From IMG/VR virus record IMGVR_UViG_3300004686_000002, positions 1-64,000 of that record: 64,000 nucleotides of DNA; one strand, written 5' to 3'. The translations under genes were made by a program, and so were the position numbers. Under the pieces are notes generated by a model. It was not told where the DNA came from, did not search any database, and saw only the letters and a program-made list of their open reading frames with translations. The stretch is from an uncultured virus (IMG/VR IMGVR_UViG_3300004686_000002). Its lineage: Duplodnaviria; Heunggongvirae; Uroviricota; Caudoviricetes. Positions 38,261-47,190 of the stretch are shown in pieces (within the stretch, counting starts at the first letter, position 1; each line of letters starts with the position of its first letter).

Positions 38261-38734
38261 TCTACTGGAGGTAGGGTTTGTTCATATTTGAATGGTTGTA
38301 ATTTTGAGCCGTCAGGATACTTTCCTGATTTTAAAATTTCGGCAGCTTTGTCTTTAGCTTCCCATGGGGCATCTGCTTCCACAGGTATTATCAAGCTATA
38401 TATCTTCTTTATTTTTACTTCATATTTCATTTGCTTTGCCCATCGAAGGGTGAGGCGTAGTTCCATGAAGGCTGTGGGCTAACCCTGAAAAACAGGGCGT
38501 ACCAAGGAATAGTTGCATCTTTTTTAACTTTATCCAAATAACTTACATATGCCCAAATAACACAAATAGAAAACAATATCATAAATGTTACATTAACTCT
38601 ACCTGTATAGCTTCTAAATAATAATTTTGTTCTGTGGTTTACTTTCATTTTGTGTGGGTGTGTAAAATAAAAAACCTCCCTTGGTGCGCATCGTTGAGAG
38701 GCGTGGGAGGTATTGTTTATTTTATTTTTATTTA

Positions 38735-41899: not shown

Positions 41900-41914
41900 T
41901 GTGTGTTGAATATA

Positions 41915-41997
41915 TGGGCAGAGAAGGATTCGAACCTTCGAAGTCTAATGACAGAGGATTTACAGTCCTCCCCGTTTGGCCGCTTCGGTATCTACCC
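41915..41997 (-). tRNA. tRNA-Tyr(GTA)
   Basis: Cloverleaf with long variable arm; loop CTGTAAA; GGTTCGAATCC. Confidence 0.95.
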
Positions 41998-42006
41998 ATT
42001 TTAAAG

Positions 42007-42081
42007 TGGTGCACGATGAGGGGATCGAACCCCCGACCTTGCCCGTGTAAAGGGCCTGCTCTACCGCTAAGCTAATCGTGC
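42007..42081 (-). tRNA. tRNA-Val(TAC)
   Basis: Cloverleaf; loop TTTACAC; CCA encoded. Confidence 0.95.
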
Positions 42082-42087
42082 TTGAAT

Positions 42088-42528
42088 TTACTTATTGTTA
42101 ACCTTTTTTAACTCAGGTTCAATTACTTTATATCCTAAAGACGTAAGAATTTTCTTACTGGTTTGGATTTTTTCCTGGATTAGTTTGGCTGAAAGCTTTT
42201 CGATTTCTTTGAGGGTCGTTTTTGCCTCTTTCCAATCCAGGTCGTTCACATAATAATAAAAATCTGAACCTAACTCAGCAAGTTTGTCATCCACGGGCTC
42301 ACCATCAAAATCTCTATCAAGAATGCTGCATTGGTTTCCGCAGGCGCAGGTAACCCAATCACCTGCCATCTTTATTTCTTTTTTAAATTTCTTTCTCGTG
42401 TTGATAATATCTTTGTCTGGCATATTATCAACGGATGTAACGCCTTTGGGCTGCTCTTTGATACGTTCTGCTAGAAAGCTGAACCAATCAAACTTTTTTT
42501 TATCTTTAGTTTCTGTGTATGTTTTCAT
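42088..42528 (-). CDS. Hypothetical protein
   Basis: WVTCACG motif; CACACAA leader. Confidence 0.65.
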   Translation of the reverse strand: MKTYTETKDKKKFDWFSFLAERIKEQPKGVTSVDNMPDKDIINTRKKFKKEIKMAGDWVTCACGNQCSILDRDFDGEPVDDKLAELGSDFYYYVNDLDWKEAKTTLKEIEKLSAKLIQEKIQTSKKILTSLGYKVIEPELKKVNNK

Positions 42529-42615
42529 TTGTGTGATAAGTTGTGCAGGGTTTATTTTTATACTCGTTGGCCATACTCCTGCTTATGCCCTTCAGTTATG
42601 AGCGACATAACAAAA

Positions 42616-42686
42616 CTACCCCTCATGGATTCGAACCATGACAAAGAGAGCCAAAATCTCTTGTGCTACCGTTACACCAAAGGGTA
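42616..42686 (-). tRNA. tRNA-Gln(TTG)
   Basis: Cloverleaf; U1-A72; loop TTTTGGC. Confidence 0.93.
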
Positions 42687-42695
42687 ATAAATCTA

Positions 42696-42770
42696 TCGGG
42701 GTGGCCGGATTCGAACCGACGACATCTTGCTCCCAAAGCAAGCGCTCTAGCCAAGCTGAGCTACACCCCG
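42696..42770 (-). tRNA. tRNA-Pro(TGG)
   Basis: Cloverleaf CGGGGTG...CACCCCG-A; loop TTTGGGA. Confidence 0.95.
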
Positions 42771-44119: not shown

Positions 44120-44419
44120 TTATTCTTCGTAACCGGCAATTATTGCAGCGCAGCGGATATATCCCGCAGCATCTACAAAATTGTCACGCTTTGATGTATA
44201 CACATCTCTGGCGATTTTCAATAGAACCATTAGCATAGCTGCATCATATGGTGATATCTCTGCCAATGGATCTTTTCTGATACTGAGATAAGCGTTCCAC
44301 ATAGTAGCTATACGTTTATGGTTGGGCTCTGGATGATCATAATCTCTTCTACGATCACCCGAAGTAACCCGCACGGCTTCTTCTAGAATGCTTTCTTTTG
44401 TGTGTTGTGTGTTTGTCAT
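44120..44419 (-). CDS. DUF6378-family protein
   Basis: ILEEA....GDR..DY..P..N..RIA.MW, MVLLKIAR, D.AGY. Confidence 0.8.
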   Translation of the reverse strand: MTNTQHTKESILEEAVRVTSGDRRRDYDHPEPNHKRIATMWNAYLSIRKDPLAEISPYDAAMLMVLLKIARDVYTSKRDNFVDAAGYIRCAAIIAGYEE

Positions 44420-44484
44420 GGTGGATAACCCTACACCTAGTTTTTTGGTGTGTCAAATGGGTTTTTTGAATAGTTAAAAAATAA

Positions 44485-44567
44485 GAGCCCAGGACAGGGC
44501 TTATAGATTTCTGCTTTCCATCAGATTTCCCGCCTAATACCAGAGGGTTTTTGGTTGTCCTGGGCTC
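44485..44567 (-). ncRNA. Candidate structured RNA (83 nt)
   Basis: Perfect 12-bp closing stem GAGCCCAGGACA/TGTCCTGGGCTC. Confidence 0.5.
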
Positions 44568-44612
44568 AAATAAATAATTATCCGCATAGAGGGCAATAAT
44601 CAAATAAAAAAT

Positions 44613-45192
44613 TTCCGGATTGTGTTAGTCACTGCCGGACCAGTGCTCCTGTGTATGTGTGGCAAACCAGGAAAATATTGGTTGTTGGTTTATTATTACC
44701 GAGCATGTTTTGAGATTTGGACTCTGTTGTATGCTCAATCTGTTATTTTTTTGGGCGGGAAAGATATACATCTCGCGGCCACAGACGGTTCCAACACACA
44801 TGATCTAACCGATAAAAGATCATTACCAAAACAAAAGTCCCCAGACAATAGAGCTCCCAGATGGTTAACTTCCTTTTTCCTCAGAGAGCATCACCTGTAG
44901 CCCCTGAGAGGATTAATATGTTATCTTCGGGATTTCCACATATACACAAAGCGCAATGCCCTGCTTCTCACAGTGGTTTTTATATCTATTGTTGGGGGGA
45001 AATTTTTCCTCAACCCGCGGTTAGCTTCTTTCCCCCGCAATGACTAATTGCGTTTCTATCCAACATGCCTGTTAATGATAGAGGGATTACACGTACTGGG
45101 AACCGCGGTCTCGTTTGTCTGAGTAGTCACAGATAGTCACTTTGTAACCGTTAGACTATGAGCAAGGGATACGATTATCCCCAGGAGGAGTA
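44613..45192 (-). ncRNA. Candidate large structured non-coding RNA (about 580 nt)
   Basis: No credible ORF; many nested stems and a 3' pseudoknot; starts about 20 nt after the tmRNA. Confidence 0.6.
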
Positions 45193-45211
45193 CTGATTTT
45201 CATCAGTAGAT

Positions 45212-45646
45212 TGGTGGAGGCGACGGGATTCGAACCCGTGTGTTCCAGAAATATCTAACAACCGTTTACATGCTTAGCTCAGCCTATTTCATCTGTACCA
45301 GTACGCTGAGCGGATACAGATGGATCTTCAACTTAACGCGAATTGAGTCGTATCTAAATTATACCCTCACAAGATAATTGAGGTACCCTTTTGTATCTCT
45401 CCGGCATCGGGCGTCCAGAGAGCGTTTTACTACTAGCGGCTTCAAGCCGCTGCGGTTAGGCAGCGAGAAGCTCGCTGTCAGCGTAGCCATACTTTGCAAG
45501 AATGGCATCCGCCTCAGCGAGGCTAGGAGCAAGCATCTCGTTAGAGTTTGCTTTTATTTTTTTCCCAGATGATTATAGAGGCCAACTGAGATCCTCTGCA
45601 TGTAGGCTGATATCAACTCCTGGAGTCGATTTCCAATTACGCCCCC
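45212..45646 (-). ncRNA. ssrA: tmRNA (435 nt)
   Basis: 5' GGGGGCG...TCGAC, 3' GGGTTCGAATCCC-GTCGCCTCCACCA with G3.U alanine identity; tag ORF 45551-45456 ending LAA*. Confidence 0.95.
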
Positions 45647-45669: not shown

Positions 45670-46443
45670 TTACTTTATCAGTGTAAAGCAAAAGCTGCCC
45701 TCTGGAACAAGATGGTTTTCATCTCTTCCCGGACTGTAATATATATGTGGTTTTGAGGGGAGTAGAACTTTTCCGAATTTCTTACCAAGCTGTAAGATAG
45801 TTTCCATAATGCCGATAGCATAAGGATGAACTTCATCAGATTTGGTATTACTGCTGTATCTGTTCCACAGCATGTCATCATCAAAATAAAGTAAATCTGA
45901 ATATTTTGATGCTCTGCCTATCTCTAGGGTTTCTTCTCTGATATCCCTCAATCCACGTCCAAGCAGGAATGTAAAAATAATATTACCCAAGGGCTTTATC
46001 ATTTTTTTATCCTCTAGCATGTGTGAGATATACTCTATTATATTTCTGTTAAAGGTACCCATGAAATCACCGTAGATTATATCAAATTCAGCTGTTGAGC
46101 TATCAAACAAGCTGGAATTAAATTTCCTGGTGACTACATCTTCCCATGATGTTTTTTGGTCTAGTAGATCAATCTGGTTTCTTTTATTCTTGTGATTGAG
46201 CTTTAGAAAATTTCTTGAAGATTCATTCACATAAGGATCAGATTCAACACCAACAATATTGAACTTATTTTCAGGGAAATTTTGAATTAACTGCCGCTCC
46301 CATAGCCATTTTTCACCAGGCAGAGAGAGTATGTTGATATCTTCTCTATAACGCAACAGCTTCTTTAGCTCTTTGTTTAGGTAGATGTCGTTGTCTCGTT
46401 TTTCTTTACGTGCTGACCAATCTATCCTGCGTACGTTTTTCAC
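45670..46443 (-). CDS. Putative class I SAM-dependent methyltransferase-like protein
   Basis: ILSLPG...IVGVE...FDIIYGDFMG strand pattern; GTG start behind an A/C-rich leader. Confidence 0.5.
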   Translation of the reverse strand: MKNVRRIDWSARKEKRDNDIYLNKELKKLLRYREDINILSLPGEKWLWERQLIQNFPENKFNIVGVESDPYVNESSRNFLKLNHKNKRNQIDLLDQKTSWEDVVTRKFNSSLFDSSTAEFDIIYGDFMGTFNRNIIEYISHMLEDKKMIKPLGNIIFTFLLGRGLRDIREETLEIGRASKYSDLLYFDDDMLWNRYSSNTKSDEVHPYAIGIMETILQLGKKFGKVLLPSKPHIYYSPGRDENHLVPEGSFCFTLIK

Positions 46444-46481
46444 TTTTTGGTTTTGGTTGGTTGTTTGGTTTCAGGGGTTAA

Positions 46482-46598
46482 AAAATAACTCTGTGTGATC
46501 ATCACCGTGATCTGTAAAAATAACACCCAGCATTAGGTTGTTTATCTTTACAGAGCGTGTTATGGGAATTACCCATACTCTACTCACAGAATTATTTT
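46482..46598 (-). ncRNA. Candidate structured RNA or leader (117 nt)
   Basis: 14-bp closing stem (G.U on the minus strand) plus internal hairpins. Confidence 0.55.
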
Positions 46599-46608
46599 AA
46601 AAGGTTTA

Positions 46609-46780
46609 GGCGCGTTCCTACCACGATGTCTGCAAACCTCGTGGTGAGGCGAATGATTTGTTCACGGTGGTTGCAGTATCCGTGAGATTGTCATTTAGTG
46701 TGGGGGTTGTGCCACACCAGTTTCCACCAATAAGTTGGAAACCCTTTCAATAAACTCGTCAGTTTATTCCTTGCTGCGCC
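46609..46780 (-). ncRNA. Candidate five-hairpin RNA with kissing loops (172 nt)
   Basis: GGCGC/GCGCC closing stem, five hairpins, complementary loops CTGCAA/TTGCAG. Confidence 0.65.
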
Positions 46781-46786
46781 ATTTTT

Positions 46787-46880
46787 TGCTCTCTGCTTTT
46801 CAGGCGGCCATGATTCCACCTCTTCCCGACTTGAGACGGTTTACGACTCTGGTTATAGTCCAGACTAATCGCAAGTAGCA
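46787..46880 (-). ncRNA. Candidate structured RNA (about 94 nt)
   Basis: TGCT/AGCA, ACTTG/CAAGT, TCTGG/CCAGA and AGGTGG/CCGCCT stems. Confidence 0.4.
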
Positions 46881-46888
46881 TTACAAAA

Positions 46889-47016
46889 ATAGATGGATCT
46901 GTGTGCCCGTTTGCTATGTGTCTCTATGCGGTGCTCGGCCGAGCAGAGCGCCATTGTACACACAATATCAGCCGTGGACCTTTAGCTAATTAGCGGACAC
47001 ACAGATCCGAATCTAT
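46889..47016 (-). ncRNA. Candidate structured RNA (about 128 nt)
   Basis: 15-bp closing stem GGATCTGTGTGTCCG/CGGGCACACAGATCC plus inner hairpin TGCTCGGCCGAGCA. Confidence 0.6.
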
Positions 47017-47056
47017 AAACTAAAAAATATAGCCTAACAAATCTTGTTATCAATTT

Positions 47057-47064
47057 ATTATACC
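47057..47064 (-). promoter_or_regulatory. -10 box (GGTATAAT) heading the RNA island
   Basis: About 40 nt upstream of the first structured element. Confidence 0.5.
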
Positions 47065-47190
47065 TGAAAAGTTAAGCTATATTATGGGGGGGTTATTTAT
47101 TTCCTGTCAGTGAATTAATTGCTAATCCTGAAATAATCAGGAGAACAAATGATGTAGCCACTAGGCAGAGAAGGTCTTCTTTTTTTCTGG

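Follow-up and report, generated by a model that had tools for sequence, protein, structure and literature searches.

To our knowledge, very few natural RNAs longer than 500 nucleotides (nt) combine an elaborate conserved structure with an unknown function, the usual list being OLE, GOLLD, ROOL, and raiA. According to the passages on these molecules in PMC12286853, the large RNAs of this list, where examined, form unprecedented RNA-only assemblies. GOLLD and ROOL, both large phage RNAs found near islands of transfer RNA (tRNA) genes, are described there as forming RNA-only cages; the 3' region of GOLLD is conserved and its 5' region variable, and ROOL, about 580-660 nt long and rich in pseudoknots, is found in phages and prophages near tRNA islands and has no known protein partner (PMC12286853). 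In mycobacteria, GOLLD lies inside a tRNA cluster (PMC6582537). Here, we describe 0.74 kb of DNA directly behind the transfer-messenger RNA (tmRNA) gene of an uncultured freshwater phage with a genome of about 200 kb. The window, by which we mean the whole stretch of 64,000 nt analysed, is the first 64 kb of the 131.6-kb IMG/VR record IMGVR_UViG_3300004686_000002, rated 67% complete. A first-pass annotation, made from the letters of the window alone, had proposed an ornate RNA of about 580 nt at 44613-45192. We consider it highly probable that this locus is a real structured RNA gene on the minus strand.

The position directly downstream of the tmRNA gene, on which the first-pass annotation had remarked, was confirmed (Table 1). 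The RNA starts at the 3' CCA end of the tmRNA, probably ends at about 44476, and lies within an interval of 792 nt (44420-45211) between the tmRNA and the next protein gene, in which the longest open reading frame (ORF) has 92 amino acids (aa). No reading frame is conserved in the RNA region. All six frames of the window copy are interrupted by 8-15 stops, substitutions are spread evenly over the three phases (67/60/64 against the related phage G001 and 39/42/34 against G005), and the indels, of 1, 2, 4, 6, and 8 letters, have for the most part lengths not divisible by three. A stop codon in G001 breaks the best antisense frame, whose codon-position changes are likewise flat (13/13/12 and 11/15/11). 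The adjoining DUF6378 gene, in contrast, is 74.6% identical in nucleotides and 81.8% identical in amino acids. As far as sequence comparison can tell, the region is thereby shown to code for no protein, and the conserved small proteins that the first-pass annotation had allowed for drop out in view of the stops, the flat phases, and the indels.

Relatives of the phage were reached via the terminase, which gave 29 IMG/VR loci at 70-100% protein identity, and 19 of these records were searched whole. Identity to the window amounts to 73-74% over about 675 nt (45115->44440) in G001, G016, and G002, which are 98-99% alike in this stretch and were counted as one lineage. G005 shares a 300-nt stretch at 79% identity, and G003 shares short pieces only; overall, the RNA is about 74-79% identical among related phages. 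An alignment of the window with G001, G002, and G005, four rows amounting to three lineages, was folded with RNAalifold, yielding 161 pairs, 38 of them with compensatory change, and this model was trimmed and completed to 152 pairs in 26 helices. Paired cells make up 98.0% of 539 in the model, compared with 90.2% in column shuffles, and both-side changes affect 40 of the 152 pairs, compared with 17.6 in the shuffles; none of 500 shuffles reached either observed value. Sliding the 3' partners by 1-3 columns left 39-46% paired and 1-8 both-side pairs. Every helix that an unbiased covarying-helix scan detected in all three lineages belongs to the model (base pairs/covarying pairs: P6, 7/5; P9, 6/3; P11, 6/2; P13, 5/4). 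The same scan for extra helices or pseudoknots returned only 4-base-pair (bp) candidates in two lineages, none of which was adopted. A natural variant, 97.5% identical (run X5), differs by 15 substitutions in the RNA, five of them in modelled pairs; four of these five keep the pair, and one falls on an already mismatched A-A cell. The variant also turns G44594-C44584 in hairpin T1 into A-U, a pairing judged by eye. Homologues carrying compensatory changes, the kind of support on which the first-pass annotation had staked its proposal, thus exist, and the region unites the two features by which structured non-coding RNAs are generally recognized, compensatory base pairs in homologues and the absence of a conserved frame.

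The RNA is assigned to the minus strand because G-U cells outnumber A-C cells (26 vs 4 among 387 cells, with the G002 row dropped as a near-duplicate of G001) and because of the position of the terminator U-run, which lies on the minus strand, the same strand as the tmRNA. The same figures bear on the reading that there is no functional RNA here at all, the region being a decaying gene, a set of small conserved proteins, or a neutral spacer with chance pairings. Short ORFs do show tblastn similarity in relatives, and the plus strand has the better folding z-score, as this reading would have it. However, the tblastn similarity appears in several overlapping frames at once, with frame switches, the best frame is broken by its stop in G001 and lacks codon-position bias, and neither the compensatory change in 40 pairs nor the G-U excess fits a neutral spacer. 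We regard this reading as scarcely credible.

Table 1. Positions of the RNA, its parts, and adjoining genes (window coordinates; for the modules of relatives, coordinates within the loci named)
Feature	Position	Strand	Remarks
257-aa gene	45670-46443	minus	directly upstream of tmRNA; no Pfam or PHROG match
Phage tmRNA gene	45646->45212	minus	ARAGORN; Rfam RF00023, 98.9 bits, full length
7-bp hairpin with GAAA loop	45208-45191	minus	between tmRNA and core; sequence, minimum-free-energy fold, alignments; window lineage only
P1, 5' strand (CUCCUG)	45187-45182	minus	pairs with 44651-44646; closes core
D1	45181-45015	minus	P2 hairpin 45181-45166; P3 45162-45110; P4 45108-45015
D2a	44996-44840	minus	long-range helix P6 (44996-44985 with 44852-44840) around P7, P8, and P9
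D2b	44810-44680	minus	helices 17-22; P11 (44810-44791 with 44688-44680) around P12 and P13
P1, 3' strand (CAGGAG)	44651-44646	minus	abuts pseudoknot hairpin, zero letters between
H-type pseudoknot	44645-44614	minus	9 sequences, 4 lineages compared
Hairpin T1	44601-44575	minus	followed by U-rich run in window lineage
T2, 81-nt branched hairpin (44566-44486) plus U-run	44566-44476	minus	terminator scan
DUF6378 protein gene, 99 aa	starts 44419	minus	next protein gene after tmRNA
Modules A, B, and C of relatives	L075/L078 ~1285-1450; L077 ~1330-1670; L076 ~1200-2000		between tmRNA and large RNA

The core of the RNA comprises 574 nt (45187->44614) and consists of the closing helix P1, three multi-helix domains (D1, D2a, and D2b), and an H-type pseudoknot at the 3' end. 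In P1, which is helix 1 of the model, one pair changes from A-U to G-C and another from U-G to U-A, and both strands are absent together in G005. P4 of domain D1 contains inner helices at 45086-45031 and a hairpin at 45052-45036; 11 pairs of helices 2-7, which form D1, are changed on both sides, and the whole domain is absent in G005. The sub-helices of D2a are P7 (44976-44936), P8 (44932-44855), and P9 (44918-44867), the last with a conserved apical loop, UACAGGUGA; across three lineages, 14 pairs of its helices 8-16 are changed on both sides, seven of them within the 10-bp part of P6. P12 of D2b (44786-44738) is invariant and bears a 10-nt A-rich bulge. P13 (44737-44700) is highly variable in sequence yet always paired, and its loop, UCCAAA, is conserved. 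A pairing of the P13 loop letters CCAAA with UUUGG in the region of 44825 was set aside, both sides being invariant, so that covariation is uninformative. In D1, the stretch GUACGUGU (45096->45089, GYACGUGU; GCACGUGU in G001) is conserved, unpaired in the model, and self-complementary if G-U pairs are allowed; judged by eye, it is a candidate pairing site between two copies of the RNA.

The pseudoknot is the most widely shared part of the RNA. Its first stem, S1 (CACUG/CAGUG, 44645-44630), has 5 bp and is followed, within the hairpin, by 1 nt and the five-letter loop strand UCCGG (44639-44635), which forms the second stem, S2, with CCGGA (44618-44614), 11-12 nt downstream. S1 and the ACACAA within the linker are invariant in all nine sequences. 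S2 occurs in three variants: the window and the G001 type have UCCGG/CCGGA, G005 has CCCAG/CUGGG, and G003 has UCCAG/CUGGA; all three are fully complementary, and two positions covary across the four lineages. With no letter between P1 and S1, these two helices and S2 could stack into a continuous rod, which would lock the closure of the molecule.

All nine pairings listed in the first-pass annotation exist in the sequence; six are supported by the relatives and three are not. Besides the loop-tail stem of the pseudoknot, whose changes were given above, the supported ones include the end-to-end pairing (45187-45182 with 44651-44646), in which one pair is changed on both sides and one on a single side and which G005 loses as a unit. 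Comparison also upheld the pairing of 45108-45101 with 45022-45015 (one compensatory pair) and the hairpins at 45052-45036 (compensatory in three of five pairs), 44909-44879 (three of seven and two of three pairs), and 44737-44700 (six of seven pairs). The proposed pairing of 45121-45115 with 44848-44842 was discarded, as the homologous letters of G001 cannot pair; its 3' strand is engaged in a 10-bp helix with 44995-44985 instead, where seven pairs covary. Neither of the two remaining hairpins found backing in the relatives: the one at 44823-44800 has its 5' arm within six letters unique to the window, and the one at 45014-44991 is not conserved and overlaps a strand that pairs with 44842-44840.

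Two hairpins follow the pseudoknot. The position of T1 is conserved, and its sequence is wholly different in G001. T2 has the features of an intrinsic terminator, a G+C-rich stem (44501->44486) followed by CUUAUUUUUU. Five pairs of helices 24-26, which make up T2, are changed on both sides, and the full stem of helix 24 (44566-44486) is kept in G001. In place of T2, G005 and G003 have a plain terminator hairpin directly after the pseudoknot. Another relative, G006, contains 65 nt (C1:28721-28787) that match the inner part of T2 (44558-44494) at 78% identity, about 160 kb from the tmRNA of that phage. T2 may be a reusable terminator module of these phages.

The distribution of the RNA is narrow. 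A second, identical copy of the locus is present in each of two further contigs, a 182-kb IMG/VR contig and a 184-kb metagenome contig, and the runs that carry this DNA are all freshwater or unspecified metagenomes. A blastn search of GenBank phage records (INPHARED) with 44420-45211 gave no match. The pseudoknot pattern was found at six loci in viral contigs, all already known, at four loci in metagenome contigs, each either a window-identical copy or one of the G001 type, and at none in genome contigs. An 18-mer of D2b marked five loci in viral contigs, again all known; pattern scans thus supplied extra copies of the window type and the G001 type and no new lineage. R1, a covariance model built from domain 2b, was run over the 19 records of relatives and scored 152-165 bits in the window (152 bits), G001, G016, G002, and G005, with one copy in each. 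In the other 14 records, four of which are 94-100% complete, it returned nothing credible; an 18-bit match in G007 (expectation [E] value, 0.25) was disregarded. The 24 loci reached through DUF6378 relatives (39-52% identity), counted apart from the twin contig, were without the RNA, which only the twin contained. A tmRNA is present in 8 of 11 further or more distant records, and RNA-like sequence accompanies it in none of the eight. In seven of these flanks, an open frame of at least 200 aa begins 87-445 nt after the tmRNA, and in the eighth, frames of 71-178 aa tile the sequence behind it. Because the homology, pattern, and R1 searches gave no further lineage, the RNA is, on this sequence evidence, confined to one small subclade of freshwater phages, the remoter relatives of which keep the tmRNA only.

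Within this subclade, the RNA differs by whole domains. At the place of the GAAA hairpin, relatives carry other structured modules: G001 and G002 have modules B and C inserted between the tmRNA and D1, and G005, without D1 and the 3' partner segment of P1, has module A, an extra stretch, and modules B and C instead. The window has none of the three. In G003, the pseudoknot, the 5' UCCUCCUGG motif, and short D1-like motifs are retained and D2b is lacking; the middle is taken up by some 500 nt of other sequence that folds strongly (z = -9.8), and module C directly precedes the pseudoknot. Module B forms a hairpin whose apical UUGUCCAAUACCAUGGACU is conserved and whose stem covaries. Module C stands at three different positions in three lineages, and a pattern scan located it at five loci, only in these phages. 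In both B and C, compensatory changes are seen by eye.

Such exchange of parts could mean that the locus is a string of semi-independent structured modules, an RNA island behind the tmRNA that is shuffled between phages by recombination. On this view, D1, D2a/D2b, the pseudoknot, T2, and the modules A, B, and C of relatives would fold separately and perhaps also act or spread separately. The main argument for this reading is that module content differs among close relatives, to which the absence of D2b from G003 and the occurrence of a T2-like stretch in G006 far from the tmRNA may be added; mobile or autonomous RNA elements are, moreover, found nearby (Pistol ribozymes, a twister-like element, and a T-loop insertion in the tmRNA; see below). 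However, P1 joins the ends of the RNA across 530 nt and covaries, the long-range helices P6 and P11 tie sub-helices into domains, and wherever D2a or D2b is present, so is the other. That G005 has lost both strands of P1 together is the main argument for one RNA in the window. We consider a string of modules unlikely, though a serious rival. Hardly more probable is the speculation that the locus represents an undescribed class of large phage RNA built as a frame with exchangeable cargo, in which a fixed start directly behind the tmRNA, the closing helix, the pseudoknot with its invariant stem, and the terminator hold domains (D1, D2a/D2b, and modules A, B, and C) that relatives exchange. Such a particle, possibly a multimer as with ROOL and GOLLD, might act on the translation or ribosome-rescue machinery or against host defence.

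How the RNA might be made can be proposed from the arrangement of the locus. A promoter of its own is unlikely because only 24 nt lie between the CCA of the tmRNA and P1; one weak promoter match (9/12) overlaps the start of the RNA. For lack of room, the RNA would share the transcript of the tmRNA, whose start is probably set by promoter-like sites near 47110-47057: such sites were found at 47110->47081 and 47053->47026, with a TATAAT at 47062->47057 (by eye), and the promoter-like stretch is conserved in G002 (73.6% over 87 nt). Between these sites and the tmRNA lie 0.65 kb of ORF-free, very stably folding sequence and then the 257-aa gene, so that the order of the unit would be promoter, leader, 257-aa gene, tmRNA, large RNA, and terminators. 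The large RNA would be freed by tRNA-type 3' processing of the tmRNA, and the transcript would end at T1 or T2, with T2, a predicted intrinsic terminator, as the probable 3' end. It might then act in trans during infection as a compact folded particle, possibly in multimeric form or with the translation or ribosome-rescue machinery as its target. Behind T2, a perfect TTGACA (44456->44451) with a weak -10 element stands ahead of the DUF6378 gene and, judged by eye, recurs at the same place in G001 and G005. As the downstream gene has a TTGACA box of its own, the RNA would not be the leader of that gene.

The same arrangement invites the reading that the sequence is a cis-acting 3' trailer of the tmRNA operon, which guides 3' maturation, protects against exonucleases, or controls termination and read-through. 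The region begins at the tmRNA CCA with no room for a promoter and ends in a pseudoknot and two hairpins, the second of them a terminator, and the pseudoknot plus terminator is the only part common to all four lineages. Against this, about 570 nt of covarying multi-domain structure far exceeds what processing or termination needs, and eight remoter relatives have a tmRNA without the RNA, frames of at least 70 aa starting 1-445 nt after their tmRNA. The conserved TTGACA box (by eye) of the downstream gene lies after the terminator, and the 3' strand of the pseudoknot does not overlap the T1 stem, which leaves no obvious switch. A cis-acting trailer thus appears quite unlikely. We lean, by a little, towards the view that these 0.74 kb encode, on the minus strand, a large and stable non-coding RNA with the mechanism proposed above; that it is one processed, stable RNA acting in trans in this way stands, in our estimate, at an even chance.

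Several observations weigh against this preferred view of a stable RNA gene. The ends of the RNA, its stability, and its action in trans are our inferences, none of the eight runs with this DNA being an RNA run. The covariation statistics rest on few independent events, drawn from three or four lineages of one phage subclade, and the model was derived from the same rows on which it was scored, a circumstance that puts the slid controls at a disadvantage. Folding of the single sequence gives modest z-scores (-2.2 for 44476-45192 and -3.8 for 44420-45211), and the plus strand folds better (z = -6.1). The domains do not always occur together, with D1 and P1 lacking in G005 and D2b in G003, a pattern that suits independent modules better than a single obligatory fold. 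No SmpB gene was found in the 67%-complete record. Finally, a comparison of 12 conserved loops and linkers with the phage tmRNA revealed no complementarity beyond chance (best z = -1.1). The best single match in that comparison, 9 bp between UGUGAGAAG and the end of the tag reading frame, is weaker by one mismatch in G002 and was judged to be chance.

The first-pass annotation had offered two identities for the RNA, a divergent member of GOLLD or ROOL and a new class of large non-coding RNA. A large structured RNA, possibly of a new class, is borne out by the compensatory changes in homologues and the absence of a conserved small protein; the divergent member is not supported by searches with the 4,227 family models of Rfam 15. 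At gathering scores (150 bits for GOLLD, RF02032, and 99.1 bits for ROOL, RF03087), the window contains only the tmRNA, the tRNAs, and an abiF motif. With permissive filters and at an E value of up to 10, region 44300-45400 gave no family match that could be credited to the RNA, GOLLD and ROOL included; a plant microRNA precursor, MIR845_2, the only match listed between 44420 and 45167, covered 44459-44590 with 16.4 bits (gathering score, 80; E = 8) and was taken as chance, and the other matches in the region rest on the end of the tmRNA. The relatives' copies (four loci) had no match at an E value of up to 1. In the whole 131.6-kb record, the GOLLD model had no match at an E value of up to 10, and neither had the ROOL model, a weak negative, as none of 14 control genomes matched either; for ROOL, the searches of the window, the region, and the relatives' copies therefore weigh more. 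By covariance-model match, the RNA is not a member of the GOLLD, ROOL, OLE, RNase P, intron, or riboswitch families, and the family models suggested at first pass (GOLLD, ROOL, OLE, RNase P, and group I and II introns) all came back empty.

A very divergent member of GOLLD, ROOL, OLE, RNase P RNA, or the group I or II introns would nonetheless suit the setting, which resembles that of GOLLD and ROOL (phage, beside tRNA-type genes, lake metagenome), and a probable group I intron lies next door in the tmRNA of relatives. With no Rfam 15 match in the region or in the relatives' copies, and none for GOLLD or ROOL in the whole record, we hold such membership to be very improbable. In the literature, a full-text search assessed by titles and the starts of abstracts returned no description of such an RNA behind a phage tmRNA. 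The portions consulted of the IMG/VR survey by Fremin et al. 2023 report motifs of 29-151 nt only (PMC10690425), and the five contig sample numbers are absent from the six of its supplement files that were searched.

Several other elements adjoin the locus. The window contains genes for a terminase large subunit, a family A DNA polymerase, helicases, RecA, five tRNAs, and the tmRNA; the tmRNA adjoins the RNA, and the tRNA genes (41914-42770) lie 2.4 kb away (ARAGORN). The 257-aa protein has a homologue in G002, and a search with this protein returned only the identical twin contig. Its predicted structure model (Atlas) resembles class I S-adenosylmethionine-dependent methyltransferases (template-modelling score, 0.56-0.61); a methyltransferase role, perhaps acting on RNA, is a lead only. 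An abiF RNA motif at 38674-38710 (minus strand; 50 bits vs a gathering score of 37) precedes a 163-aa ORF.

Upstream of the 257-aa gene, a second ORF-free stretch (46444-47090, minus strand) folds far more stably than its shuffles (z = -10.8) and includes a subthreshold match to the type-P1 twister ribozyme at 46785-46887 (29.6 bits vs a gathering score of 67.2; E of about 1e-4). In G002, a full Pistol ribozyme (L057 343-411, 61.5 bits) occupies roughly this position relative to the gene, which suggests that the tmRNA operon leader has a place for self-cleaving ribozymes. Pistol ribozymes were also found in relatives at L060 1062-1129 and L056 1068-1135, the three scoring 59.7-61.5 bits (gathering score, 34.5), and lie about 390 nt upstream of the tmRNA in G003 and G005 and about 1,140 nt upstream in G002; at the gathering score, the window contains none. 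The T-loop of the tmRNA is interrupted by about 660 nt in L078 (G001), L079 (G016), and L077 (G005), the insertion ending in G before the 3' exon and bearing an antisense ORF with a LAGLIDADG-like motif; the interrupted tmRNA of G001 drops to 35 bits in Rfam. The insertion probably represents a group I intron bearing a homing endonuclease gene, presumably like known tRNA introns, and the Rfam intron models gave no match to it at an E value of up to 1.

A further, unrelated example of a big RNA in the same niche, the phage locus beside tRNA-type genes, would strengthen the idea that large phages have a hidden stock of big structural RNAs linked to the apparatus of translation. The 574-nt core, with its defined closing helix and pseudoknot, is a compact target for probing and cryo-electron microscopy, and since whole domains differ between close relatives, the subclade is a natural experiment in the construction of such RNAs. 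The narrow distribution (three or four lineages) and the inferred mechanism limit the value of the finding.

Comparison with described RNAs places this RNA as follows. In their make-up, classical H-type pseudoknots of the frameshift, riboswitch, and telomerase type are like the one at its 3' end, with an S1 of 5 bp, 1 nt across S2, an S2 of 5 bp, and an A/C-rich loop of 11-12 nt that could lie in the S1 groove. Unlike them, it terminates a large RNA, where it would stack on the closing helix, matches no riboswitch family, and is overlapped by no reading frame or expression platform. T4 species 1 and 2 (rnaC/rnaD) are stable RNAs other than tRNAs, about 120-140 nt long, which are co-transcribed with tRNA-type genes and freed by tRNA-processing enzymes. 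They share with our RNA its proposed nature as a stable RNA of a phage tRNA-type cluster, whereas the RNA described here is four to five times larger and has multiple domains. ROOL is similar in size to the 574-nt core, but stems from gut and rumen Firmicutes phages rather than freshwater phages, and its model finds no match here. GOLLD, which exceeds 800 nt in many members, is ornate, was first obtained from lake metagenomes, and occurs in phages and prophages, often beside tRNA genes. Our RNA is likewise large, phage-borne, of freshwater origin, and beside a tRNA-type gene, and it too is conserved at the 3' end, where the pseudoknot recurs in four lineages, and variable at the 5' end, where D1 is replaced in G005, a likeness of setting that does not define a family. 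It differs from GOLLD in the absence of a model match, in its layout of a closing helix and a terminal H-type pseudoknot, and in its restriction to a single phage subclade. Our best reading of these comparisons is that GOLLD and ROOL are closest in setting and related to it in neither case. The RNA is a previously uncatalogued family of a known kind, the large ornate phage RNAs next to tRNA-type genes.

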